Of a DNA stretch of 64,000 nt, positions 11,510 through 45,491 are shown one piece after another. The notes under the pieces are model-generated. The model was not told where the DNA came from. It did no database searches and saw only the letters and a list, made by a program, of their open reading frames with translations. Numbering within the stretch: the stretch's first letter is position 1; each line of letters begins with the position of its first letter. Both the position numbers and the translations under genes were made by a program. The stretch comes from Acidobacteriota bacterium. Its GTDB lineage: Bacteria; Acidobacteriota; UBA6911. Location of the stretch: positions 346-64,345 of the forward strand of contig JBBIMP010000030.1 of NCBI GenBank assembly GCA_037444305.1. The letters are read 5' to 3'.

Positions 11510-11606
11510 CCTTTCTTTTCGGGTGAAGGCTGTCGAGCGCTGCCTTTGGTGTTCAAGGAAATGATTCATGAGGAAGCGTTCGACAGCCTTCACCCGAAAA
11601 GAAAGG
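11510..11606. repeat. 97-nt element with 32-bp near-perfect inverted repeats (31/32) flanking a 33-nt loop
   Basis: Arm1 is 11510-11541 (cctttcttttcgggtgaaggctgtcgagcgct). Arm2 is 11575-11606; its reverse complement differs by one base. Two further short GC hairpins follow at 11606-11660. Confidence 0.6.
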
Positions 11607-33151: not shown

Positions 33152-33982
33152 ATGCTTAGGGAGATTCCTGATCTAAAACTCGGCGCCCGGGACCGCCAGC
33201 CGGAAGGCTCGGTGGTCGATGTCGGCGGGGTACCCATCGGCGGACGCAATCCGGTCGTGGTGGCGGGACCCTGTTCGGTCGAGAGCCCCGAACAGATGCT
33301 GGCGGTCGCGCAGGCGGTCCAGCGCTCCGGCGCGAGGATTCTCCGGGGAGGGGCCTACAAACCCCGCACCTCCCCCTACACCTTCCGCGGGCTCGGCGAA
33401 GAAGGCCTGAGGATACTGGCGGATGTCCGGCGCGAAACGGGGCTTCCCGTCGTCACCGAAGCGATGGATGCGCGCCACCTCGAGGCCGTCTGCGCCCACG
33501 CGGACATGGTCCAGGTCGGCTCGCGCAACATGCAGAATTTCACCCTGCTCGATGAGGTCGGCCGCTGCAAGCTGCCGGTCCTGCTCAAGCGAGGCCTGGC
33601 CGCGACCCTCGAGGAACTCCTGCTGGCGGCCGAGTACATCGCCAGCGGCGGCAACGAGCGGATTGTGCTGTGCGAGCGGGGCATCCGGACGTTCGAGACC
33701 TCCGCGCGGAACACGCTCGATCTGAACTCCGTGCCGATGCTGAAGGCGCTGAGCCATTATCCCGTGATCGTGGACCCGAGCCACGGAACCGGCCTGTGGT
33801 GGATGGTAACGCCGCTGGCAAGGGCGGCCGTCGCCGTCGGCGCCGACGGGATCCTGGTAGAAGTGCATGGAGACCCGTGCGGCGCGCTCTGCGACGGCGC
33901 GCAGTCTCTGCTGCCGGAGCGATTCGAGGCGATGATGTCCGAACTGCGTCCCTTGGCGGCTGCGATGGGAAAGGAAGTCTGA
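33152..33982 (+). CDS. aroF: 3-deoxy-7-phosphoheptulonate (DAHP) synthase, class I-beta (unfused catalytic barrel)
   Basis: VAGPCSVES...[23 protein letters not shown]...VGSRNMQNF...LLKRG...[10 protein letters not shown] matches the B. subtilis AroA/KdsA-type barrel. A KdsA assignment cannot be fully excluded. Confidence 0.75.
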
Positions 33983-34211
33983 GCTGCGAGGATCCCCGAC
34001 AGCACTCAAGAAGGGCAGGGGCGCAACACCGCACATGACTTCCCTCACCCGCATCCCGGGTTGCGGCAACCAGCAAATCCCCCACAGTAATAATTGAAAT
34101 CCACCGCCCCTTGGGAATAGCATCAAAGCACATGCGGCAGGAGTTTGCCCCCCGGGCCGCCGGTCCGGGAGCCAGGCGTTCGATATCGAGTTCTCTCTTC
34201 CGGAGACCGGA

Positions 34212-34823
34212 GTGGCGGCACACATATTGACCAGACGCGGACTTCTAGCGCACCCCGCATTCGCCATCTCGGAACTCCTCCGCACATTGCCCGAAGCCGA
34301 TACGCCCGGTCCTGAGGCCAAAACCGCCGGGGGACTCAGCGACACCGATGTCCAACGCATGCTTCATGCCCTCGCCGACCTCGAGCGGGCCAGCCGGGCT
34401 TTCCAGACGCTGGCCGCGGGACAGGAATCGGTCGTGCGGGATCTGAAGGATATCCTGCGGGATATGCAGGAAATGGCTGCCGGCGGGGAGGCGCAAAACC
34501 GGCGTCAACTGGTCGAGGATTTCCTGCCTCTGAGCGACAGCCTGCACCGCATGTCGAGGGCGCTCGCCAACTGGGAGAGCGGCGCCCTGGCGGCAGGGGC
34601 GGACAGGCTGGCCGGAAGGGCCGACGACTTTCTCTCGTCCCTGGGTGTCGAGATCGTACCTACCTTAGGGGAAAGATTCGATCCTCTGGTCCACCAGGCG
34701 CTGGAAATCAAACCGGCCCCGCCGGACATGCAAGGGCGTGTCCTTGAGGAGATTTCCAGGGGCTACCGCTTCGAAAACCGGATTCTGAGAGCGGCTCACG
34801 TCATCGTCGGCAGGAGGGAGTGA
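34212..34823 (+). CDS. GrpE-like nucleotide-exchange-factor homologue
   Basis: The C-terminal GERFDPLVHQALEI...GRVLEEISRGYRFENRILRAAHVIVG resembles the GrpE beta-domain signature (FDP..HEA...GY...R..LRPA.V.V). Confidence 0.5.
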   Translation: MAAHILTRRGLLAHPAFAISELLRTLPEADTPGPEAKTAGGLSDTDVQRMLHALADLERASRAFQTLAAGQESVVRDLKDILRDMQEMAAGGEAQNRRQLVEDFLPLSDSLHRMSRALANWESGALAAGADRLAGRADDFLSSLGVEIVPTLGERFDPLVHQALEIKPAPPDMQGRVLEEISRGYRFENRILRAAHVIVGRRE

Positions 34824-34866
34824 TGGGATCGGCTCTGCTGCCGGCGACGGCGGGACGGAACCACGC

Positions 34867-35835
34867 ATGAGGGCGGATTCGCTGTTCAACGAGGGGCTCC
34901 GGAGAGCGCGCACGGGAGACTACGTGCCGGCGCTCGCCCTTCTGCGCGAGTCGCTCGCCCTGGATGCCGACCGCGCCGAAACCTGCCGCCTGATGGGAAA
35001 AGTCTGCCTGCACCTGGGACAGCTGGACGAAGCCGAGGCCTGCTGGGAGAGGGCGCTTGCACTCGAACCGAGCGACAGCGAGGCCGCCCGCTGCCTGCGC
35101 GTTCTCGGCCGGCACCGGACGCTGCGGCATGCGTGGTCGGCAGCACTCGTGCTCATCCTCGCCGCGGTTGTCACGGCAGTGTCCTGGCATCATTACCGAT
35201 CTCTGCGCGGTTTCGAAACCGCCCTGGCGCGCCTGGAAACCCGGCTGCAAGTTGCCGCGCAGCCGCAGTTGCCGGAGCAGGAGGCCCCGGAGCCGCCGGG
35301 AGCCCCGGCTGCGCCGCCGGCCGCCCAACCGCAGCCAGAAGCGCCGGCAGAGCCCGTCCAGGAGCCCGCTGCGCCTCCTGCCCCGCCTCCGATCCCGACG
35401 CGTGCACCCGCGGCTGCGCCGCCTCCATCGCCGGCAAGGGCGCCTGAAACGTCTGTGCCTTTCGCGGACCGATACCAGACCGCCCTATCGGCGGCCCTTG
35501 CCGGCGAACTTGCCAAAGCGAGAGGCCTGTTCGAGCCGCTGGCGCAGGAAGTTCACGCGAAGGAACCGCTCGCGGGCAACGCCCACTACTGGCTCGGTCG
35601 CTGCCTCTACGAGCTCGGCGACACGCGGGCGGCACTCCAGCGCTTCAATCTCGTATTGGCGCAATATCCGCGTTCGTATAAGGTCGGGGATGCCATGCTC
35701 GACAGCGGCAGGTGCCATCTCCGTCTCGGGGATCCGGAAAAAGCACGGGAGGCATGGCAGAAGCTGCTCGACGGCAGATACGAAGCACGCGTGAAGGAAG
35801 CCGCCCGGCGCCTCATGCGCGAAGCCGGTTTTTAA
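34867..35835 (+). CDS. TPR-repeat protein with a TM helix and an Ala/Pro-rich linker (YbgF/CpoB-like C-terminal TPR)
   Basis: N-terminal TPRs, a hydrophobic segment AALVLILAAVVTAV, an about 90-aa Pro/Ala linker, and a C-terminal TPR module (...AHYWLGRCLYELGDTRAAL...). Confidence 0.6.
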   Translation: MRADSLFNEGLRRARTGDYVPALALLRESLALDADRAETCRLMGKVCLHLGQLDEAEACWERALALEPSDSEAARCLRVLGRHRTLRHAWSAALVLILAAVVTAVSWHHYRSLRGFETALARLETRLQVAAQPQLPEQEAPEPPGAPAAPPAAQPQPEAPAEPVQEPAAPPAPPPIPTRAPAAAPPPSPARAPETSVPFADRYQTALSAALAGELAKARGLFEPLAQEVHAKEPLAGNAHYWLGRCLYELGDTRAALQRFNLVLAQYPRSYKVGDAMLDSGRCHLRLGDPEKAREAWQKLLDGRYEARVKEAARRLMREAGF

Positions 35836-35955
35836 AAGCAGTGGGCTTCGTGCCCCTCTGGGTCTTGACCTCTGGGAGGCAAAAACGGGGAAGCGGCAAA
35901 GGCCCGAAGGTACACACCGTCGAGGCAGGCGTACTCCCGATTTCGGCAAGCGGAA

Positions 35956-37050
35956 TTATTCGTAGACGTGGATCGCAATGGCCTTCACGGCCGCGAAGAG
36001 GATCTCGCCGGCAACCATGTGCAACGAGGCGGCCGCCTCGCGCGTGACCTCGGCCCGGACCGGCAGCCCCGCGTCGATGGTGACCCTCACGCGATCGGCA
36101 AGCGCCAGGACTTCCGTAACAGTTCCTCGGAACACATTCCGCGGCGAACCTTCGGGCCGCTCGTGAAACAGCGTCACGTCGGCCGGCGCGAACGTCAGGA
36201 AGACCTCCCCCGCCAGTGCATCGGCGATCACATGAAACTCCAGCGGGCCCGCGTGGGCCGATTTGAGCCCCGCACCGGAATCCAGCACTGCCTGGAAGAG
36301 ATTCAAACCGGTGAATTCGGCCACGAAGCCTGTTCTCGGCTGCTTCTGCAGGTCGCTCAACCGCCCCGTCTGGCTGACCCGCCCCTCCTCCAGGACGATG
36401 ATGCTTTCCCCCAGGACCAGGGCGTCCAGCGGATCGTGCGTCACGATGAGCACGGGAATGGCGACCTCGGCCAGGAACTCCCTCAGTTCCCGGCGCACCG
36501 ACATGGACGTGGCAACGTCCAGCGAGCGGAAGGGCTCGTCCAGCAGAAGACACTCGGGGTCGGCCGCCAATGCCCGCGCCAGCGCCACCTTCTGCTTTTC
36601 GCCACCCGAGAGCCGAGCGACATCCGCTCCGGCGAGCGCCTCGATGCCGAGCCTCGCCAGCCACCAGTCCACAGCCCTCTCCCGCTCCGGCCGCCGCGCA
36701 GAACGCACGCGGGGGCCGAAGGAGATGTTTTCCCGCACGGTCAGGTGAGGGAAGAGCGCGTAGTCCTGGAAAAGCAGGCCGACCCGGCGCCGCGAAGGAG
36801 CGAGGTGCACGCCCGCACCCGCGTCCGAGAGGACGCTCTCCCCGAGCGAGATCCTGCCCCTGTCCGGCTGCAGCAGGCCGGCAATCAGCCTCAGGCAGGT
36901 GCTTTTGCCCGAGCCGTTCGGCCCGATCAGGACGGTCGGGGAACCTGGTTTGACCTCGAAGCAGGCGTCGAAGGCGAAGCCTCCGAGAGCAACACCCGCG
37001 TCGACCGTGAGTGACTGCGCTTGGCCCAGCTGCCGGCTCAAATCGTGCAT
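35956..37050 (-). CDS. modC: Molybdate ABC transporter ATP-binding protein with a C-terminal TOBE domain
   Basis: Walker A GPNGSGKST. Signature LSGGEKQKVALARAL. A C-terminal TOBE-like domain. Confidence 0.85.
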   Translation of the reverse strand: MHDLSRQLGQAQSLTVDAGVALGGFAFDACFEVKPGSPTVLIGPNGSGKSTCLRLIAGLLQPDRGRISLGESVLSDAGAGVHLAPSRRRVGLLFQDYALFPHLTVRENISFGPRVRSARRPERERAVDWWLARLGIEALAGADVARLSGGEKQKVALARALAADPECLLLDEPFRSLDVATSMSVRRELREFLAEVAIPVLIVTHDPLDALVLGESIIVLEEGRVSQTGRLSDLQKQPRTGFVAEFTGLNLFQAVLDSGAGLKSAHAGPLEFHVIADALAGEVFLTFAPADVTLFHERPEGSPRNVFRGTVTEVLALADRVRVTIDAGLPVRAEVTREAAASLHMVAGEILFAAVKAIAIHVYE

Positions 37051-37054
37051 GGTC

Positions 37055-37894
37055 TCAGACAACGGAGGGCCTCCAGCGCGCCGCCAGCCACTTGGCGGCA
37101 ACGAGCGTGACGATCGACAGGATCAGGACGAGGGTAGAGACAGCAACCGCAGTCGGGAGGTCGGACTCCATCGCGCTCATGACCGCGAGGGTGAGCGTCT
37201 GGGTTCTTCCCGGAAAGTTCCCCGCGAACATCATGGTGGCGCCGAACTCCGAGAGGGCGCGCGCCCAGACCAGCAGCACCCCGGCCAGGAGCGAGGGGCG
37301 GGCCAGCGGGAGAACGACAAAGCGGAAAGTCTTCCACGGGCCTGCCCCCAGTGTGGCAGCTGCCGCCACCAGGTTGCGGTCCACCGTCTCGAATCCCGCG
37401 CGCGCCGATTTGATGAAATACGGGCTGGCCACGAACACCTGCGCCATGACGACCGCGGCGCTCGTGAACCCGATTTCGAGGCCGAAAACCGAAAGGTGCT
37501 TCCCAATCAGCCCGTTCCGTCCGAATGCCAGCAGCAGTGCAACTCCGGCCACCACCGGGGGGACGGTCAGCGGAAGATCCACCAGCGTATCCAGCCACTC
37601 CTTGCCGCGGAACCTTCCGCCCGCCAGCAGCAGGGCGACCGGAGTCCCTGCCGCCACGCAGATGGCGGTGGCGGCCAGGGATGTCTTCAGCGTGACCAGG
37701 AGGGCTCGCACGGCCGATTCGGAGCGGATGTGCAGCCACCAATCCGCCGGCGAAAGAAAGAGCAGCAGCGCGGCGAGCGGGAAAAGCAGAAACAGCAGCA
37801 GCGGAAGCGATCCGAGCGCAAGCCCCGTCAACGAGCCGCCCGGCTCGCGTCGCCGCTGCCCGTCCTTCCCGCGAGCGTCATTGGAAGAAGCCAT
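37055..37894 (-). CDS. modB: Molybdate ABC transporter permease
   Basis: Typical ModB/CysT-type permease with the EAA-like loop (ARALSEFGATMMFAGN). Confidence 0.85.
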   Translation of the reverse strand: MASSNDARGKDGQRRREPGGSLTGLALGSLPLLLFLLFPLAALLLFLSPADWWLHIRSESAVRALLVTLKTSLAATAICVAAGTPVALLLAGGRFRGKEWLDTLVDLPLTVPPVVAGVALLLAFGRNGLIGKHLSVFGLEIGFTSAAVVMAQVFVASPYFIKSARAGFETVDRNLVAAAATLGAGPWKTFRFVVLPLARPSLLAGVLLVWARALSEFGATMMFAGNFPGRTQTLTLAVMSAMESDLPTAVAVSTLVLILSIVTLVAAKWLAARWRPSVV

Positions 37895-38714
37895 GCTCGT
37901 TCAGTATCTTCCGGCCCCGTTCACCCAGAACGAACCGGACAAAGGCGCCGGAGTGTTCCCGGGCCGCAGCTTTGGCGAGAACCGCTATCCAATAGTCCGC
38001 CGTAATCTCCACTCCCGGGGGAAGCGCGAGGATCCGGACCTTGTCCCCGGCCGCCACGGCATCCGTCTGATAGACGAAGCCGGCGTCGGCTTCCCCCAGC
38101 ACCACGCGCGACAGCACGGCGCGCACACTGGTCTCGTGGCTCAGAACGTTGGACTCGACACCTGCAGAATAATCCGGTCTGAATCCCTCGATCACGGAAA
38201 GCGCGTTCACGAGTGCCCGTGCATACCGGCCCGCGGGAACGGCTTCCGCGGCCATCACTACCTTCACGCCGGGAAGCGCGAGATCCTCCGGACGGGTAAC
38301 ATTCCCGCAGCCGCTGCAGGCAATCGCCACGATTCGATTGCGGGCCAGGAGGGCAGGATCACGAGCCAGCGATCCCTGCCTCAGCGCCTCCATTTCTTCC
38401 GTGTCGGCGGAAGCGAAAACGTCCGCCGGCGCCCCCTGCTCGATCTGTGTCCGCAGCAACTGGCTGCCGCCAAAGTGAAACTCGATGCGCATTCCCGGAT
38501 GGGCCTTCTCATACTCGGCGCCGACCGCGCGGAATGCATCCGTCAGGGAAGATGCCGCGAAGACCTTCAGCTCCCGGGATTCCCCCACGCGGCAGGCCAT
38601 GGTGAATGCAGAGAGCGACACGAAGAGAAGTGCGGCCTCGAGGGCTGCGATCCTCCAGCGCCAGGCGCATTGCAGAATCTCACGGAGTTGCCCGCAGGGT
38701 TGTGCCTGTGCCAT
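37878..38714 (-). CDS. modA: Molybdate-binding periplasmic protein
   Basis: VFAASSLTDAFRAVGAEYEKAHPGMRIEFHFGGSQLL...ADVFASAD is a ModA signature. It overlaps modB by 17 nt. Confidence 0.8.
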   Translation of the reverse strand: MAQAQPCGQLREILQCAWRWRIAALEAALLFVSLSAFTMACRVGESRELKVFAASSLTDAFRAVGAEYEKAHPGMRIEFHFGGSQLLRTQIEQGAPADVFASADTEEMEALRQGSLARDPALLARNRIVAIACSGCGNVTRPEDLALPGVKVVMAAEAVPAGRYARALVNALSVIEGFRPDYSAGVESNVLSHETSVRAVLSRVVLGEADAGFVYQTDAVAAGDKVRILALPPGVEITADYWIAVLAKAAAREHSGAFVRFVLGERGRKILNEHGFFQ

Positions 38715-38753
38715 GAACTCCCGAGGCCGGCGGCGCGTCAGGGATGGGGTACG

Positions 38754-39320
38754 CTAGAAGTGAATTGCGATCCCCGTGGTTATCAGAAGGTTGGAATCCC
38801 ACTTGGCGCGATCCCTGGCGCCCGTGATGTCCGGCAGGCCCATCGCCATCTGGTTCAGCTCCAGGAGGAGGTGAAAGCCGGGGCTCAGCCGGATCTGCGC
38901 GCCGCCGCCGTAACTAAAGGTCTGGCCGTAGCTCACCAGGGTAAAACCGGGCTGCTCGAATACATACCGGGTGAAGCCGACGCCGCCCTTCGCAAAGAAG
39001 TTGAACGGGCCCACGTCCCTCTTGGTCACCAAGAGTCCCTGCATCTCGTTGATGAGATTCAGATCGAGTCCGCCCTGCTTGACTCCAGTGTAGAACCCCA
39101 TCTGCTGCCAGAGCCCGAAGACACCGGTGATGTTGTAGGCGAAGCCGAATCCGCCGCCTTTCAGGCCGGCGTCCCTGATGTCGAACGCAGGGCTCCCCGA
39201 ACGGTAATCGAAGCTCCGGTTCCCCTGGTAGAAGACCTGCAATTCGCCCTGGGGAAAGCTCTGCGCCATCGCGGTGCCGACACCGAAGAGCACGACCGCC
39301 GCCACCAGTATGTTTTTCAT
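38754..39320 (-). CDS. Small outer-membrane beta-barrel protein (OmpW/OmpA-barrel-like), first gene of the mod cluster
   Basis: Signal peptide MKNILVAAVVLFGVGTAMAQ. Alternating hydrophobic residues and aromatic girdles. It ends ...TGIAIHF. It lies 39 nt upstream of modA on the same strand. Confidence 0.65.
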   Translation of the reverse strand: MKNILVAAVVLFGVGTAMAQSFPQGELQVFYQGNRSFDYRSGSPAFDIRDAGLKGGGFGFAYNITGVFGLWQQMGFYTGVKQGGLDLNLINEMQGLLVTKRDVGPFNFFAKGGVGFTRYVFEQPGFTLVSYGQTFSYGGGAQIRLSPGFHLLLELNQMAMGLPDITGARDRAKWDSNLLITTGIAIHF

Positions 39321-39334
39321 AGGACCCCCGTGAA

Positions 39335-39363
39335 AATCTAGCCGCCGGGTGCTGGTCTGTCAA
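39335..39363 (-). promoter_or_regulatory. Candidate sigma70-type promoter for the OMP-modABC cluster (TTGACA-17-TAGATT on the minus strand)
   Basis: The reverse complement of 39335-39363 reads ttgaca gaccagcacccggcggc tagatt, 14 nt upstream of the OMP ATG. Confidence 0.4.
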
Positions 39364-39573
39364 CGGCTATTCGGGAAGCGGGATTCCCCCACCAACCAAT
39401 AGGAGATGGGCATGACTGAGAGATCCGCAAGGGGATTGTGTTTCTGGTTGCGGCGCCTTGCCTGCGCCTCGTGCCTCGTCGGCTTCGCCGCCGGGGTGGC
39501 GCCCGCTCAAGGTTCCCAGTCGTGGCTCGAAGCCTGCCGAGCCGCCGCTATCCGGCCGGCCGGGTCTGCCATG

Positions 39574-40055
39574 CTATTCCAAGGGTGGCGAGTCGAGAAC
39601 CTCCCGCACCTTGAGCGTCAATTGATCCAGATCAAAAGGCTTCTTCAGGAACCGGCCGGGCGCCTCCGGCAGATTGCTTTTCGAAAAGTCGGCGTATCCC
39701 GACATGAAGAGAATCCTAAGGGCCGGCCGCATGCGGTGCACAGCATCAACTTGCCTCCGTCGGGCATGGCATCGCGGGCGTTGACCGCCAGGTTCATGAT
39801 GACCTGCTCGAGCCGGCCGCGGTCAGCCCAGACATGTTCCAGTCCGGGATCCAGGTCAAAGACGATTTCTATGTCCTCCCCGATCAACCGCTGCAGCATC
39901 CTCGCGATGTCCTGCACGACCTTGTTCATGTCGAGAACGGCGGGCTGCAGAACCTGTCGGCGACTGAAGGCAAGAAGCTGGGAAGTGAGCTTGGCAGCGC
40001 GGTCTGCCGCCGTGCGGATCTCCTGGAGATCGAACTTCGGCCCTGCGAAGCGCAT
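39574..40055 (-). pseudogene. Remnant of a hybrid histidine kinase: a post-H-box/N-box fragment joined out of frame to the last about 50 aa of a receiver domain
   Basis: The frame from 40055 reads ...LTSQLLAFSRRQ...LEQVIMNLAVNARDAMPDGGKL, which includes an N-box, and then degenerates. From 39732 in another frame it reads MRPALRILFMSGYADFSKSNLPEAPGRFLKKPFDLDQLTLKVREVLDSPPLE*, which is a receiver C-terminus. There is no H-box, no G1/G2 boxes and no receiver Asp region. Confidence 0.6.
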
Positions 40056-40090
40056 GGCCGAAAAGGGCAGCCATCGCCGCCGCGCTTTTC

Positions 40091-41536
40091 GTGACGGTGG
40101 CGGCCGCTACGCTGGGTGTCAAGCATCTGCAGGACCGAAGACGGGCGGCGCAGTATTTTACCGAGGCACGGGTGGCGGTGGAAGAGCATTACTCCGGCAG
40201 CAGCCTCAACGGCATGCGGCTGGATCTTCCGTTTCGCGTCGCCGGAGGCGTCCGCAGCACGCAGCCCGGCGAGGGCATGACTAGGGCGGAAATGCTCTTT
40301 CACCGGGCACTCACCCTCGACGAAGACATGCCCGAAGCGCGGCTGGGACTGGCGGCGGTCTATCTGCAGAGCGGCAGATTCGCGCAGGCCCGCGAGGAGT
40401 TCGGCAGGATCCTCGTTCGGCACGGCGGGCATCTGCAGGCGCTCATCGGGAGGGCGGCTGCATATTACGAGGAGGCGCTCTCGGAGCAGGATCCTTTGCG
40501 ACACCAGACGCTCCTTCATTCATCCCTCGCAGACTGTAACCGGGCCCTGCAGGCCGAGCCTCAATCCGCCGAGGCTCGGTACAACCGGATCTGGACGCTT
40601 TATGAACTGGGTCGACACCGGGAGGCGCTCGAAGAGAGCGAGCGCTACCTCGAACAGGATGCCACCTCCATCTGGTCGGCGCGCGTTCGGGAACTCCGGC
40701 GGCGGATGGCGCTTTCGGCCCCGGAGGCTTACAAGGAAGAGGTCCGGCGCGCCGCGGCAGCACGCGATCCGGCTTCGCTCATCACGCTGGTGCAGCTGGT
40801 CCCCGATGTGATCCCGGCGGCCATTCGCCATGCCCTGCAGGGCAGCCTGGATGCCGGCGAGGCATCCGGGCCGTCCGGGACCGGGGCGGACTATCGCTGG
40901 GCAGCGTCGACCATGGAGGGGGCGTATCGGGCGGCCACCGGCGACAATGCCTATGAAAGGCTCATCGACTACGTGGACAGGCTTACCCCCCGGCAGCGGG
41001 AAACCAAGCGCGAATTGGACAAACGCTTCCAGGAGCTGCTGGAACTCCACAGAAAGGGCGAGGCCGCCGCGGTGCCGGCCGCAACCGGCCCCGTTGCCGT
41101 TGCTTTCGAGCGGCTTTACGACTTTTGGCAGCTGGTCAACGTTCATCATCTCCGCGGCAACTGCCGCTTCTACCAGGCGGATTTTGCCGGGCACTCGGAA
41201 TCGATCCACGGAGCCCCTGCGCTCATCCTGCGCAGGGGCAGCGAAGCGCATCGTATGGAGAGCGGAGCGATCCAATCCTGGAATCTCGCGCGCAACCGGC
41301 TCGTGGTTCTGGCCGGCTGCGAAACGGGAACCGGCCCACTCGCCGCCGGGGAGAGTCCCTGGGGTCTGGCGCCCGCCTTCTTCAAGGCCGGCGTCCCGGC
41401 GCTGGTGCTTTCCCTGCTCCCGCTCGAGGAGGCGGCGCTCCGGCAGCATCTCGAGGATTGTCCTGCCTGTCTGGAGCGTCTCGCATCCTACCTGGAGCTC
41501 GTCGGCCGGCCCGCCGCCAGCCTGAAGGTTATGTAG
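40091..41536 (+). CDS. CHAT-domain (caspase-like protease) protein with TPR-like N-terminal repeats; the 5' end is probably truncated or displaced
   Basis: The C-terminus ...FAGHSESIHGAPALIL...LVVLAGCETGTG...GLAPAFFKAGVPALVLSLLP matches the CHAT His/Cys dyad context. N-terminal TPR-like helices are present. The N-terminus (MTVAAATLGVKHLQDRRRAAQYF...) is atypical, and the gene starts 36 nt from the kinase remnant. Confidence 0.55.
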   Translation: MTVAAATLGVKHLQDRRRAAQYFTEARVAVEEHYSGSSLNGMRLDLPFRVAGGVRSTQPGEGMTRAEMLFHRALTLDEDMPEARLGLAAVYLQSGRFAQAREEFGRILVRHGGHLQALIGRAAAYYEEALSEQDPLRHQTLLHSSLADCNRALQAEPQSAEARYNRIWTLYELGRHREALEESERYLEQDATSIWSARVRELRRRMALSAPEAYKEEVRRAAAARDPASLITLVQLVPDVIPAAIRHALQGSLDAGEASGPSGTGADYRWAASTMEGAYRAATGDNAYERLIDYVDRLTPRQRETKRELDKRFQELLELHRKGEAAAVPAATGPVAVAFERLYDFWQLVNVHHLRGNCRFYQADFAGHSESIHGAPALILRRGSEAHRMESGAIQSWNLARNRLVVLAGCETGTGPLAAGESPWGLAPAFFKAGVPALVLSLLPLEEAALRQHLEDCPACLERLASYLELVGRPAASLKVM

Positions 41537-41692
41537 CCTATTGAGGCGCCGGCGCCACGAGTGATTCCGGCCTCGCCCAGGGGGAGCGGGTCCGGAGAAG
41601 CCGGATGGGATGCGGGGGACCGATCCCATTCAGTCCTTATGGGTTCGCCGGCGCCATCAGGAATTCCGTCCCGGGCTCCTCGCCTGCCGGTT

Positions 41693-42481
41693 TTACTTCA
41701 GTTCCCTCACGTAGCAGGGATATTCCGTGCGGGCACGCTCCGCCCAGGAAGGATCCAGGTCGTGGAAGACGACGGGAGTACTCCTGGATGTTTGGGCTAC
41801 GAGATCCCCCTCGGGATCGACCACCCACCCGCACCCGCCGAACTGCTGTCCCCGGGAGTCGAGTCCGCCGCGGTTGGAGGAAACCGCGTAGCAGCCCGAG
41901 ACGATCGCGGCCATTTTCAATGCCGCCAGCCAGCGACCGAGCGAGCCGCGGCCCACGGCCCGCGGCACGGCGAGCAGGTGCGCGTGCTCCCGCCCGTACC
42001 TCCGCGCGTGCTCGTTGAACATGAGCTCCGTGCAGACGAGAAAGCCCGCGCCGATGCCGGCTGCCTGCACCACACGAAAGTGGCGCTCACCCGGTTGAAA
42101 CCACCGGGCCTCGTAGTAGCCCTCCTCGTCGGGAAAATACTGCTTGGTGTGAACCCCTGTCGCCCCTTCCTCCGGCGTCCAGACGAACGCCTCGTTTACC
42201 AGCCGTTCCTGCCGGCGGGCCGGCCGCGTTCCCAGGACGCAGCGGGCGCCGAGCTCGTGCAGCAGCGCTATCCCCCTATCGTGCAAAACGAGGGATTCCT
42301 CGATCTGTGCGGCATCCGGTTCCCGGCCCGCCGCGAGCCACCGGCCGAAGGGCATTTCGTTCAGCAGGAATAGATCCGGTCCACCCGCACGACTTCTCCC
42401 GGCCAGTGCCTGCCACTCCTCCGATCCCGGCAGCATTTCCGGGCTCGATTCACAGACGGCGATTCTCAGCAATCCGGACAT
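41693..42481 (-). CDS. Carbon-nitrogen hydrolase (nitrilase superfamily) protein
   Basis: The E-K-C triad context is present: LLNEMPF (Glu), VHTKQYF (Lys) and GFLVCTELMF (Cys). Confidence 0.8.
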   Translation of the reverse strand: MSGLLRIAVCESSPEMLPGSEEWQALAGRSRAGGPDLFLLNEMPFGRWLAAGREPDAAQIEESLVLHDRGIALLHELGARCVLGTRPARRQERLVNEAFVWTPEEGATGVHTKQYFPDEEGYYEARWFQPGERHFRVVQAAGIGAGFLVCTELMFNEHARRYGREHAHLLAVPRAVGRGSLGRWLAALKMAAIVSGCYAVSSNRGGLDSRGQQFGGCGWVVDPEGDLVAQTSRSTPVVFHDLDPSWAERARTEYPCYVRELK

Positions 42482-42494
42482 CCCCCTCTCCCGC

Positions 42495-43457
42495 TCAGTA
42501 GCCGAGGCTCAACCGCCCGCCGACGTCGAAGTTGCCGCCGCTCACAACCGCCACGACGCGTGTGCCGCCCGGCAGCGGCACTTTCCCCCGGAGCAGCGCC
42601 GCCACGGCTGCCGCGCCCGCCGGTTCCGCCAGCAGCTTGGCGCGCTCGAGGAGAAACCGGATCGCCTCCAACATCTCCGCGTCGCTGACGGTGACCAGAG
42701 CGTCCACATTCCGGTCGATGATCTCGAAGATGTCCGGATCGGTCCTCCGCGTGGCGAGCCCGTCGGCGATCGTCCGGACCTCATCTAGGTCCGTGCACGC
42801 TCCACTTCGCCGGCTCTGGTACATGTTCGCGGAGCCCTCGGGTTCCACTCCGACGATCCGGACCTCCGGCTTGTGCACTTTGAGCGCCATCGCCATTCCC
42901 GCCAGCAGACCGCCGCCCCCGATCGGCACGACGACGGCTTCCACTTCCGGGACATCTTCCAGGATTTCCAGGGCTACCGTCCCCTGCCCGGCCAGAATGT
43001 AGGGATCCTTGAAAGGGTGCACATAGACCAATCCCCTCTCAATCGCCAGTTCCTGGGAGCGGGTGAAGGCATCGTCCCACAGCCGGCCGAACTGTATAGC
43101 TTGCGCTCCGTATTCCTTTACGGCTGCGACCTTGCCCGGATTGGCTTTTTCCGGCATGACGACATAACCCGGGATCTTCTCGTGGGAGGCGACATAGGCC
43201 AGCGCCTGGCCGTGATTCCCCGCCGAGGCCGTGATCACGCCGCGGCGCGCCTCGGCCCGGGGAAGATGGCGTATCTTGTTGAACGCGCCGCGCGGCTTGA
43301 ACGAACCGGTCTTTTGCAGGTTTTCCGCCTTCAGATAGGCGCGGATCGCGCAGCGCTCGCTCAGCGACCGCGAGCTGAAAACCGGCGTCCGGTGCACGAG
43401 GCCGCCGATCGCCGTGCGGGCTTCATGGAAATCTCGTTGCGTCAGGTCATATTTCAT
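42495..43457 (-). CDS. PLP-dependent threonine/serine dehydratase (TdcB/IlvA catabolic type, no ACT domains)
   Basis: The PLP-lysine motif SFKPRGAFNK, plus ITASAGNHGQALAYVA and the glycine-rich loop VPIGGGGLLAG. Confidence 0.8.
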   Translation of the reverse strand: MKYDLTQRDFHEARTAIGGLVHRTPVFSSRSLSERCAIRAYLKAENLQKTGSFKPRGAFNKIRHLPRAEARRGVITASAGNHGQALAYVASHEKIPGYVVMPEKANPGKVAAVKEYGAQAIQFGRLWDDAFTRSQELAIERGLVYVHPFKDPYILAGQGTVALEILEDVPEVEAVVVPIGGGGLLAGMAMALKVHKPEVRIVGVEPEGSANMYQSRRSGACTDLDEVRTIADGLATRRTDPDIFEIIDRNVDALVTVSDAEMLEAIRFLLERAKLLAEPAGAAAVAALLRGKVPLPGGTRVVAVVSGGNFDVGGRLSLGY

Positions 43458-43678
43458 GCGTTCTTTCTGCCACAGCGGCCCGTGGAAATACAAATGCAAT
43501 TCCGTTGTATGGTCCCATGCCCTGAATTGCCGCCCCTGCATTTTTGCGGAAGCAAGGGGCACAGCCGGCCGATAAGCGGAAAACGGGCCCCGGCCGGAAG
43601 TGCGTTTCCCGGAAGCGGATGGAATTTTGGGAGCAAAACCACTATGCTGATCAAGCGGTTAACTTGCCCATAGAGAGG

Positions 43679-44305
43679 ATGAGGAAAGTGAAAAATATCT
43701 TGTGCGGCGTCCTGGTTTTTGTGTTGGCATCGGGCTTCTCCCTGCAGGCGCAGAATCCTCCGTCGGCGCCTCGGGCCCCTGCGCAGCCTGCGAAGGTGGA
43801 AAATCCACAGGCGGTACCCAAGGACTACGTGATAGGACTGGAGGATGGGCTCGCAATCGTCGTCTGGCGCGAACCGGAGTTGTCCGTCAAGGAGACCTTC
43901 GTGCGGCCTGATGGCAAAATAACGCTGCCGCTGATCAACGACATCCAGGCCAGCGGCCTGACCGCCGAGCAGCTGCAGGAGCAGATCGCCGAGAAGCTGA
44001 AGGAGTTCGTCGCCGCGCCGAACGTGACGGTCATAATCACCAGGATTTCAAGCCAGAAGGTATCCATCGTGGGCGAGATCTCCGCCCCCGGGATTTACAC
44101 GCTCGGCTCTCCCATGACCGTGCTCGAGCTGATCGCCAAGGCCGGCGGCCTGCGGGAATATGCCAATAAGAAGAAAATCAGGATTGTCCGCGAGGAGGGT
44201 GGCCGCACTCTCCAGTTCATGTTCAATTACAAGGATGTCGTCCAGGGGAAGAACCTGAAGCAGAACATCCCGTTGAAAAACGGCGACATCGTGATCGTGC
44301 CCTAG
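43679..44305 (+). CDS. wza: Polysaccharide export outer-membrane protein (Wza/GumB family; Poly_export + SLBB)
   Basis: DYVIGLEDGLAIVVW...DGKITLPLINDIQASGLTAEQLQEQI...VSIVGEI..PGIY matches the Wza family. An N-terminal signal peptide is present. Confidence 0.8.
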   Translation: MRKVKNILCGVLVFVLASGFSLQAQNPPSAPRAPAQPAKVENPQAVPKDYVIGLEDGLAIVVWREPELSVKETFVRPDGKITLPLINDIQASGLTAEQLQEQIAEKLKEFVAAPNVTVIITRISSQKVSIVGEISAPGIYTLGSPMTVLELIAKAGGLREYANKKKIRIVREEGGRTLQFMFNYKDVVQGKNLKQNIPLKNGDIVIVP

Positions 44306-44632
44306 CGGATCCCGAGAAGGATTGCCCGGGGGCGGCCGCCCTCATGCCTCTGCCTCTACTTCTGCGGAGCCCGTGGCGGAAGGACGACTGCCGGCGCTCC
44401 CTTGCCGGCAACGACCTTGTTGAAGGCGGGAAGGTCGGATTCCAGCACCCGGGTGGTGTAACTCTGCAGCACTTTCCCCCTTCGTCCAGAAGCGCGAGCG
44501 AGGCAGTGATTCTCATCATTTTCATATCTCCATCGAAAGGCTCGGTTCAAAAAGGAAGACCACTCTTTGCGGTAAACGGTGCGATCCACCCCAAAGACAC
44601 CAGGGCGCAAAGATCCGCAAAGAACGCACGGG

Positions 44633-45118
44633 CTATCGCGCCGGTTCGGGAATGTTCGTGTAGGCGAGGGCCGCTATTCTCCATGCGCCGCCCCGGCGCT
44701 GCAGGATGAAATGGTTCACGCCCATGGCGACCACACTTCCCTCCCTGGCGATGCGGAATGCGGCGCGCACGTGCGCGAGTTGGCCGCTCTCCACCGTGAC
44801 CACGGGTTCGATCAGCTCCTCCCGGAATGGCTTTGCATTCGGGTTGTTCTTCAGTTCCTCCATCCACTCGCCGGCCGTGTGGAGCGTGTGGGAGAAATCC
44901 GACGTCCCCTTGCGGCTCACAATGCGGACGGCACCCGGCAGGAACCGGCGGGCAGCCTGTTCCAGCCGAAGTTCGCCAAGATCCGCGAGAAAATCCTCAA
45001 CCGCAGATATGATTTCGGATCTCTCATCAGCCGCGAGACCAACGTCGGCAAATGAGGCGGACAGGACTGTAAGAAAACATAGCGCAATAATGGCGCGGGC
45101 TCCCGTCGTGCGTTTCAT
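44633..45118 (-). CDS. NTF2-like (SnoaL/DUF4440-type) secreted protein
   Basis: Signal peptide MKRTTGARAIIALCFLTVLSASFA. The about 130-aa body has an NTF2-like pattern (...AVEDFLADL...SGQLAHVRAAFRI...). Confidence 0.5.
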   Translation of the reverse strand: MKRTTGARAIIALCFLTVLSASFADVGLAADERSEIISAVEDFLADLGELRLEQAARRFLPGAVRIVSRKGTSDFSHTLHTAGEWMEELKNNPNAKPFREELIEPVVTVESGQLAHVRAAFRIAREGSVVAMGVNHFILQRRGGAWRIAALAYTNIPEPAR

Positions 45119-45491
45119 GTCGGCTTCCCCTGCTTTGATGGATGGAAATGTTCGTTAGTGTGCCCGAATTCTAGCATAGCACGGCGGCGCCGCAGCCGAG
45201 GAAAGCCGGATTTAAGGGGCGCGGTAGGCGGAACCGCGAACGCCAGTGAGCGGTCAGCTGCCCCGGTCGGGGGAAGCGACCCGTCGCTGCCGCTCCGGGC
45301 TCCGTGGGATTCCCACCGGCAAACATAACTCGCAGATATGGCAGCGTGGTGCCGTTGCCGTTTGAGCTTGCTTCATACGCGGGAGACATTTTGCGGATCA
45401 GCAAAACAGGGCCGTTCGGCGATTCCGGCTATATGAACATATGGCATTTGTCCAGTCTTCGGGACTACACTGGGACCGGGGAGTTCCGGAC

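Follow-up and report, generated by a model that had tools for sequence, protein, structure and literature searches.

Positions 39574 to 41536 of the 64-kb window (the whole 64,000-nucleotide stretch of DNA that was analysed) hold five fragments of regulatory genes, each defined by homology, which abut without spacer DNA at junctions J1 to J4; at a further junction, J5, the family homology stops early. The flanking genes are intact (modABC, an outer-membrane protein gene, CN_hydrolase and PALP), while every catalytic or partner-binding module between them is incomplete or missing. The features are as follows.

39335-39363, minus strand: the sole promoter-like site in 39200-41800 (TTGACA, 17-nt spacer, TAGATT; one found in the promoter scan against 0.1 expected)
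39574-39735, minus strand: receiver-domain tail, spanning about beta4 to alpha5 as judged from where it falls in the domain, and ending at its natural stop TAG at 39576-39574 (PDB match and alignment to the L087 kinase)
39730-39741, minus strand: junction J1, kinase residue ~316 joined to receiver residue ~495 with ~178 residues lost (homology blocks overlapping by 10 nt)
39736-40040, minus strand: histidine-kinase fragment that runs from DHp helix 2 into the beginning of the catalytic domain and includes the N-box NLAVNARDAMPDGGKL (kinase homology and GC phase)
40032-40052, no strand: junction J2, the 5'-truncated kinase (minus) set against a 5'-truncated anti-sigma gene (plus) (homology ends)
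40040-41185, plus strand: anti-sigma family positions 96-479, covering the putative membrane helix, linker and first TPR/scaffold region (family HMM, 449.8 bits, E 1.5e-135)
41183-41185, plus strand: junction J3, in frame, from family position 479 to 1010 at a common Phe codon (QADF/AGH; adjacent HMM blocks)
41183-41437, plus strand: CHAT core fragment, family positions 1010-1094 (family HMM, 114.7 bits, E 2.2e-34)
~41432-41437, plus strand: junction J4, the CHAT fragment fused in frame to a zinc-finger fragment (family profile)
41429-41503, plus strand: displaced zinc-finger anti-sigma fragment HLEDCPAC (H-x3-C-x2-C), family positions 34-58 (N-terminal profile match)
41504-41536, plus strand: eleven codons without detected homology, then the stop; junction J5, the family homology ending at 41503 (family HMM)

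On the minus strand, the translation of 40055-39645 runs ...DLQEIRTAADRAAKLTSQLLAFSRRQVLQP...RLEQVIMNLAVNARDAMPDGGKLMLCT and is nonsense thereafter; the frame one base earlier yields (V)HRMRPALRILFMSGYAD...FLKKPFDLDQLTLKVREVLDSPPLE up to the TAG at 39574, and no single continuous reading frame crosses J1. The codon-position GC periodicity changes phase where the fragments switch, the third position being in phase 0 in the kinase piece and in phase 1 in the receiver tail. In a large-database phmmer search, the kinase fragment matched thousands of histidine kinases at E ~1e-30 and 60-68% identity, and its retained N-box aligns with the N-box of many kinases; the H-box, the sensor and the G1/F/G2 boxes are absent. 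The receiver piece, the last 50 residues of its domain, matched a solved hybrid-kinase receiver domain in the PDB (28tm_A, residues 69-119, E 2.9e-5). As the equivalent of residues 69-119 in a 133-residue receiver, it is an incomplete domain in which the phospho-acceptor Asp region is missing. Since the two pieces are so short, Pfam is nearly blank on them, with HisKA below threshold (E 0.061) and no match for HATPase_c or Response_reg. Thus, of the domains that the sequence-only reading had named for this region, CHAT was recovered as a partial profile, and HATPase_c and Response_reg escaped Pfam, both pieces being confirmed by phmmer and the PDB search instead.

The extent of the loss is clear from an alignment to the intact 549-aa hybrid kinase of L087. 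Its residues 217-316 correspond to 40031-39732 and its residues 495-548 to 39741-39586, two blocks that share 10 nt but lie in different frames, and residues 317-494 have no counterpart in the window. The L087 H-box (HDFNNLL, by inspection) lies ~30 residues before the start of the kinase homology at residue 217; the window DNA upstream of that homology is coding sequence of the anti-sigma remnant on the opposite strand. Because ~178 residues are missing and the blocks overlap in different frames, a single-base correction cannot restore the kinase. Programmed frameshifting at J1 was also considered and rejected, as inspection revealed no slippery heptamer of the X XXY YYZ type, and a frameshifted product would still miss the H-box, ATP lid and Asp. 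The window kinase is dead, through a 5' truncation and an out-of-frame internal deletion that removed the ATP lid and the phospho-acceptor half of the receiver. The sequence-only reading had proposed exactly such a damaged hybrid kinase, an N-box fragment out of frame with a receiver tail; its ORFs and motifs lie as placed, and the junction that it put near 39725-39735 was found at ~39735.

Hybrid sensor histidine kinases of the HisKA-HATPase_c-receiver type are abundant in Acidobacteriota and related phyla. Compared with them, the window copy keeps DHp helix 2, the N-box and the receiver C-terminus at 55-68% identity, in the normal order and on one strand, but lacks the sensor, H-box, G1/F/G2 lid and Asp region, and its pieces are out of frame. 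The L087 kinase was rejected as its orthologue, being 55% identical as against 65-68% for unrelated kinases. Given this low identity, the position of the L087 kinase beside the operon of the best relative of the second gene is treated as incidental.

That second gene is represented on the plus strand by a real 481-aa ORF (40091-41536, start codon GTG 40091). Since TPR words saturated the candidate list, a word-indexed protein search with this ORF returned one relative, and an exhaustive search was used instead. Among 1.84 billion cluster representatives, none exceeded 50% identity to the ORF protein, which forms a cluster of its own (n = 1). The relatives are 1107-1154 aa long (~1145) and carry a zinc-finger anti-sigma domain, one membrane helix (an Ala-rich hydrophobic segment taken as such by inspection), a TPR scaffold and a CHAT domain. 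Invariant among them are the N-terminal H-x3-C-x2-C (H39, C43, C46) and the CHAT His and Cys; in P0123 the full CHAT domain spans residues 873-1140 (profile positions 3-289). That another relative, P0002, shares the window truncation was tested and rejected, its frame being open to the contig edge and the gene partial; it carries an independent in-frame deletion.

Against this family, the window retains positions 96-479, 1010-1094 and then 34-58, having lost ~95 N-terminal, ~530 internal and ~55 C-terminal residues. The scaffold block is 47% identical to P0123 residues 115-487 and 40% identical to P0122 residues 111-433. Positions 1-95 are missing at the 5' end, and the zinc-finger piece stands at the 3' end instead. 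The putative membrane-helix stretch AWPKRAAIAAALFVTVAAATLGV is encoded at 40052-40120, and the first start codon, GTG 40091, falls in mid-helix with only the second half downstream. At J3 the HMM blocks end at 41185 and start at 41183, where relatives read ...YYQADF-KRAE... and ...ILHF-AGH..., and the loss includes the N-terminal part of the CHAT fold. The CHAT fragment, 50% identical to residues 447-530 of the L005 CHAT ORF, is covered by Pfam CHAT over profile positions 150-237 only (E 2.6e-8), 85 of 289 positions being left and about two thirds gone; the His (FAGH, 41183-41194) and Cys (AGCET, 41312-41326) are kept and align with the family invariants H1007 and C1049. The zinc-finger fragment is the top match to the N-terminal profile in a six-frame search of the whole window (12.9 bits, E 0.006, the runner-up scoring 6 bits), an assignment based on 25 residues and with an E-value that holds within the window; it also matches Pfam zf-HC2 (E 0.01) and is 44% identical to P0122 residues 32-58. 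Coding-type GC periodicity is preserved across the ORF. The 481-codon frame stays intact over two in-frame junctions and carries no point lesions, a pattern that selection on the ORF could likewise explain, although chance alone would keep two of three junctions in frame with a probability of ~0.26.

The family profile also matches 8rot_B, a 991-residue CHAT-domain chain (E 5.4e-11), which we link to Myxococcus DdvA because this length fits DdvA, whose CHAT domain comprises residues 702-991 (DdvA paper). A single family sequence used as query gave no match, and only the family profile detects the remote likeness. The DdvA paper itself reported the anti-sigma/TPR-CHAT architecture from Myxococcota and one Comamonas species only. 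The intact relatives share the layout of DdvA and a small sigma-like gene upstream, which overlaps the start of the anti-sigma gene in L005, L087, L088 and L089 and scores below Pfam thresholds; they are, however, only remotely similar to DdvA, and no defence genes were noticed beside them. The window copy differs further: it lacks the N-terminal anti-sigma domain, keeps half of a putative membrane helix and 85 of 289 CHAT positions, and has no sigma partner, for which a tblastn search with the L088 protein found no match in the 64-kb window at E up to 1. By these comparisons, the 481-aa ORF appears to be the wreckage of a ~1145-aa DdvA-like transmembrane anti-sigma factor and no working protease gene. 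The free-standing TPR-CHAT protease suggested earlier thus gives way to a damaged anti-sigma factor with most of its CHAT domain lost, a misplaced zinc finger and no sigma partner.

The two remnants meet head to head at J2, where the kinase homology ends at 40031 and the family HMM begins at 40040-40043 (profile position 96-97) with no intergenic DNA. No promoter-like site lies at J2, and both remnants lack a recognisable promoter and Shine-Dalgarno sequence; the site at 39335-39363 serves the intact outer-membrane beta-barrel gene 39320-38754 (Pfam OMP_b-brl, E 6.4e-5). The truncation of both genes at this single junction fits a deletion that spanned both 5' ends. An inversion model for J2 predicts minus-strand remnants of the zinc finger or sigma gene to the left of the receiver tail, and none were found.

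Taken together, 39574-41536 very probably represents the non-functional remnants of two adjacent regulatory genes, joined at no fewer than five rearrangement junctions and produced by ordinary gene decay. The minus strand would once have carried a hybrid sensor histidine kinase (gene 1) and the plus strand a DdvA-like transmembrane anti-sigma factor (gene 2), the pair having shrunk from an estimated 6 kb at least to 2 kb. One deletion across the divergent promoter region would have produced J2 and cost both genes their 5' ends, the sigma gene probably being lost as well. Separate deletions may account for the loss of the ATP lid and N-terminal receiver part of the kinase (J1, out of frame), of the middle of the anti-sigma factor (J3, in frame at the common Phe codon) and of its tail (J5). 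The topology of J4 is that of a tandem-duplication joint, and it could equally reflect a deletion into a downstream paralogue since lost. These events were probably recent or simultaneous, because ~1.9 kb of remnant coding sequence contains no stop codon or small frameshift. Any product that is still made is predicted, from the modules left in it, to be unable to work as a kinase, receiver, anti-sigma factor or caspase-like protease.

Large deletions that strip parts of non-essential genes and leave the flanking housekeeping genes intact are a familiar route of bacterial pseudogene decay. The present locus likewise shows partial gene loss between intact flanking genes, but the density is unusual for ordinary decay: five or more junctions are packed into 2 kb, one being of duplication type, and the surviving pieces are free of small frameshifts and stops. 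A single event that pieced fragments of the two adjacent genes together, whether by serial template switching at microhomologies or by the error-prone repair of a segment that had shattered, would account for the five junctions, of which one is backward and duplication-type and one strand-opposed, as well as for the absent point lesions. We regard this origin of all the junctions as rather unlikely; if true, it would be a natural bacterial rearrangement of a chromothripsis-like or MMBIR-like local kind.

It is improbable that only the kinase is dead and that the 481-aa ORF lives on as a shortened gene, a DdvA-like ancestor having given rise to a soluble TPR protein in which a His-Cys segment persists as a vestige. 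Such a gene would agree with a frame that is open over two in-frame junctions without stops, with the retained GC periodicity, with the gene callers reporting the ORF and with a TPR/scaffold block that scores 450 bits against the family HMM. It would, however, have to be expressed without a Shine-Dalgarno sequence or promoter-like site from a first available start codon in mid-membrane helix, with 85 of 289 CHAT profile positions left and the sigma partner missing, and its architecture is found in no other protein, the cluster having one member. Still less probable is an artefact, in which metagenome assembly or chimeric amplification created the junctions and the real genome carries intact genes. 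The contigs are metagenome-assembled, and four seamless junctions in 2 kb without point lesions are unusual. Nevertheless, two other assemblies, which may share reads, gave the identical sequence in this region, namely a 162-kb NCBI MAG contig (GCA_964538715.1) and an 11.6-kb Logan contig assembled from SRR11582151; the MAG contig differs at three positions (44200, 50410 and 50572), all of them outside the scar. Moreover, the junctions are not flanked by repeats long enough to mislead an assembler, and internal deletions at non-repeated sites rarely arise from assembly errors.

The sequence-only reading had named the insertion or rearrangement of the CHAT gene as a possible cause of the kinase truncation. 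The one junction common to both genes could be read in this way, but an otherwise functional TPR-CHAT gene is hard to reconcile with truncation at that same junction and damage at three further points, and no mobile-element genes, repeats or tRNA genes were found nearby; nothing in the data suggests such an insertion, and we give it very little credence. The window as a whole holds no repeats, Rfam families, tRNA genes or further anti-sigma or CHAT copies. In place of an insertion, the decay of both genes is the reading that we prefer.

How the genes were ordered ancestrally, and how many events took place in which sequence, are drawn from family-level comparison at 40-47% identity. The CN_hydrolase flank matched GTDB genomes at no more than 61% identity over its full length, with no neighbours in common, and JGI contigs at no more than 63% without synteny; the outer-membrane protein flank had no match in JGI contigs. 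With no close relative or conserved neighbourhood found, the ancestral locus cannot be rebuilt.

A tie to the CRISPR-associated TPR-CHAT proteases finds no support. PADLOC gave no match for the ORF or its full-length relative P0123, and neither CRISPR nor cas genes were noticed among the genes called nearby. The likeness to Csx29/craspase of type III-E CRISPR, in which TPR and CHAT domains are also combined, is at the domain level only, and the architecture of the relatives is that of a membrane anti-sigma factor, not a cytoplasmic protein. The locus is a cautionary case for annotation, because Pfam CHAT and TPR matches suggest an effector protease though two thirds of the fold are gone. The 136-aa and 481-aa ORFs reported by gene callers should be flagged as pseudogene fragments, and not as a kinase or a CHAT-domain protease. 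Of modest value in their own right, the intact relatives would make up a DdvA-like anti-sigma factor family of some size among uncultured bacteria.

The feature is real and lies where the sequence-only reading had placed it; it is ordinary pseudogene wreckage, and the stretch 39574-41536 very probably consists of non-functional remnants. On the minus strand, the ORF at 40055-39645 and the frame that overlaps it and runs to the TAG at 39574 read as that account had stated, a hybrid-kinase fragment followed by a receiver tail. Its proposed Pfam check would have led us to drop the finding, because Pfam barely detects the kinase pieces (HisKA E 0.061, receiver tail unmatched), and it was settled by more sensitive comparisons. 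The kinase is of the very common hybrid type. A two-piece query matched 3543 proteins at E ⩽ 1e-10. Many HisKA/HATPase_c proteins match its kinase part at 60-68% identity (E ~1e-30), and the receiver part aligns with residues 69-119 of a hybrid kinase's receiver domain of known structure (133 residues; E 2.9e-5). When the intact 549-aa kinase of comparison locus L087 is aligned, its residues 217-316 fall on 40031-39732 and residues 495-548 on 39741-39586, two blocks that overlap by 10 nt in different frames. The alignment gap between them means that 178 residues are missing, comprising the G1, F and G2 boxes, the linker and the Asp-bearing half of the receiver; nothing of the kinase ahead of the second DHp helix is left either. 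The kinase is not recoverable by any single-base correction. Codon-position GC periodicity shifts phase where one fragment gives way to the next, which is what genuine coding remnants should show.

Four metagenome hybrid-kinase remnants, P0002 (L086 33-521), P0005 (L170 4001-4747), P0006 and P0007 (L171 4001-4552), were also seen, in which the ATP lid is deleted and the N-box region continues in frame to a partial receiver domain. Their junctions are all at different positions, and P0005 and P0007 are flanked by unrelated genes; they came from a concatenated query designed to pick out such cases.

The "TPR-CHAT gene" (481-aa ORF, plus strand, 40091-41536), previously taken as free-standing, is a remnant as well, its CHAT domain being incomplete and its relatives (P0123-P0143) typically 1107-1154 aa long. 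Among 1.84 billion cluster representatives searched exhaustively, no relative exceeded 50% identity; residues 5-375 of the ORF align with residues ~115-487 of the relatives at 40-47% identity. A family profile built from 18 full-length members fits one plus-strand frame of the window as three abutting blocks.

Blocks of the family profile in the window
40040-41185, plus strand: family positions 96-479, 450 bits; membrane helix, linker and first TPR/scaffold region
41183-41437, plus strand: family positions 1010-1094, 115 bits; CHAT core with FAGH and AGCET
41429-41503, plus strand: family positions 34-58, 12.9 bits; zinc-finger fragment HLEDCPAC

Short as it is, the zinc-finger block outscores (E 0.006) every other match of the family's N-terminal profile across all six frames of the 64 kb, the next-best scoring 6 bits. 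From this mapping, the window copy is therefore truncated and carries a displaced zinc-finger piece at its 3' end, the wrong one; an intact member has ~95 N-terminal, 530 internal (including most of the CHAT fold) and ~55 C-terminal residues more. The Pfam CHAT match in the ORF, which spans only profile positions 150-237 of 289, agrees with this loss.

The intact relatives have the layout of DdvA, a Myxococcus membrane anti-sigma factor with TPR-CHAT: a zinc-finger anti-sigma motif (H-x3-C-x2-C) at the N-terminus, then a hydrophobic, Ala-rich segment (taken by inspection as a single membrane helix), a long TPR scaffold and, at the C-terminus, a complete CHAT domain (in P0123 covering Pfam profile positions 3-289). 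Upstream stands a 185-243-aa gene whose stop overlaps the relative's start and which has sub-threshold similarity to sigma-70 regions 2 and 4. This layout (~1145 aa) is found at L087 8001-11429, L088 4467-7895, L089 4096-7545 and L005 10001-13277, and the family counts 39 cluster representatives at E ⩽ 1e-30. The L005 member (P0122, found by word-indexed search) falls into two ORFs of 524 and 583 aa that overlap at 11526-11575, owing either to a frameshift or to a sequencing error. The family profile matches 8rot_B, a 991-residue CHAT-domain chain (E 5.4e-11) whose length agrees with DdvA, in which CHAT occupies residues 702-991 (DdvA paper); a single member as query does not reach it. Most features that define this family are missing from the window copy, and no sigma-like partner was detected anywhere in the 64 kb. 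The earlier allusion to CRISPR-associated TPR-CHAT effectors does not apply, since the copy has no similarity to defence-system models.

Junctions between the fragments
J1, ~39735: kinase joined to receiver tail, out of frame
J2, 40032-40052: 5'-truncated kinase and 5'-truncated anti-sigma gene head to head, intergenic DNA absent
J3, 41185: in-frame deletion at a Phe codon
J4, ~41435: CHAT position 1094 joined in frame to zinc-finger position ~35
J5, after 41503: homology ends, followed by eleven codons and a stop

In the anti-sigma frame, homology already begins ahead of the first start codon available, AWPKRAAIAAALF preceding the GTG at 40091, and this GTG falls in the middle of the membrane helix. 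Relatives conserve the Phe codon of J3 at each of the two parental sites (...QADF and ...LHF-AGH). The topology of J4, where end meets beginning in the same orientation, is that of a tandem-duplication joint; a deletion running into a downstream paralogue, since lost, could also have produced it. The 156 nt separating the ORF's stop from the end of the CN_hydrolase gene hold an imperfect 26-nt direct repeat (41547-41572 and 41646-41671; 81% identity, 99 nt apart); in GC-rich DNA this could have arisen by chance.

The flanking genes, all on the minus strand, are apparently intact.

Flanking genes
35956-38714, minus strand: modC, modB, modA
38754-39320, minus strand: outer-membrane beta-barrel gene, with the sole promoter-like site of the area
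41693-42481, minus strand: carbon-nitrogen hydrolase (CN_hydrolase)
42495-43562, minus strand: PALP enzyme

Between the outer-membrane gene and the receiver tail, a plus-strand ORF begins (39406-39560) with AGGAG ahead of its start and a signal-peptide-like beginning, MTERSARGLCFWLRRLACASCLVGFAAGVAPAQ, and continues antisense across the kinase remnant. This ORF could be what is left of the 5' end of a third gene, or it could have arisen by chance. The window is from an uncultured bacterium; the closest genomes by flanking gene, Acidobacteriota and Thermoanaerobaculia MAGs, reach only ~60% amino-acid identity. For CN_hydrolase, the best full-length match among 160 loci (L006-L169 set, GTDB genomes and JGI contigs) is 63% identical, and of the loci checked for gene order, the 53 most similar, none has any of the window's other neighbours next to it. 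This lineage is thinly sampled, and its local gene order is not conserved.

The simplest account is that a kinase gene and a sigma/anti-sigma operon, arranged divergently on opposite strands, both decayed. Loss of the sigma gene and of the 5' ends of both genes (J2) could go back to a single deletion over the shared promoter region; J1, J3 and J5 would stem from further deletions, and J4 from one duplication-type or paralogue-fusion event. We can only infer this history: no genome or metagenome contig was found with more than ~63% identity in a flanking gene, and in none is the neighbourhood shared. Neither a stop codon nor a small frameshift interrupts the surviving 1.9 kb, an indication that the events were recent or that a single complex event took place.

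That a shortened TPR protein survives is unlikely: the two in-frame junctions among the three testable are not significant (chance ~0.26), and neither remnant has a promoter-like site in a promoter scan or, by inspection, a Shine-Dalgarno sequence. An assembly or amplification artefact is slightly less likely; contig CAZIEJ010000004.1 (MAG GCA_964538715.1) differs from window 30091-51536 by three mismatches (44200, 50410 and 50572), none within the region of interest, and a Logan assembly contig of run SRR11582151 is identical to 33668-45305. Least probable, by a small margin, is the earlier suggestion of an insertion; the junctions are not accompanied by repeats, mobile-element genes, tRNA genes or known RNA families, and ARAGORN found no tRNA or tmRNA gene in the whole 64 kb (1-64000).

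The chief value of the feature is as a warning for annotation. As a side gain, DdvA-like anti-sigma factors, an architecture reported only in Myxococcota and one Comamonas species (DdvA paper), are seen to form a family in uncultured bacteria.
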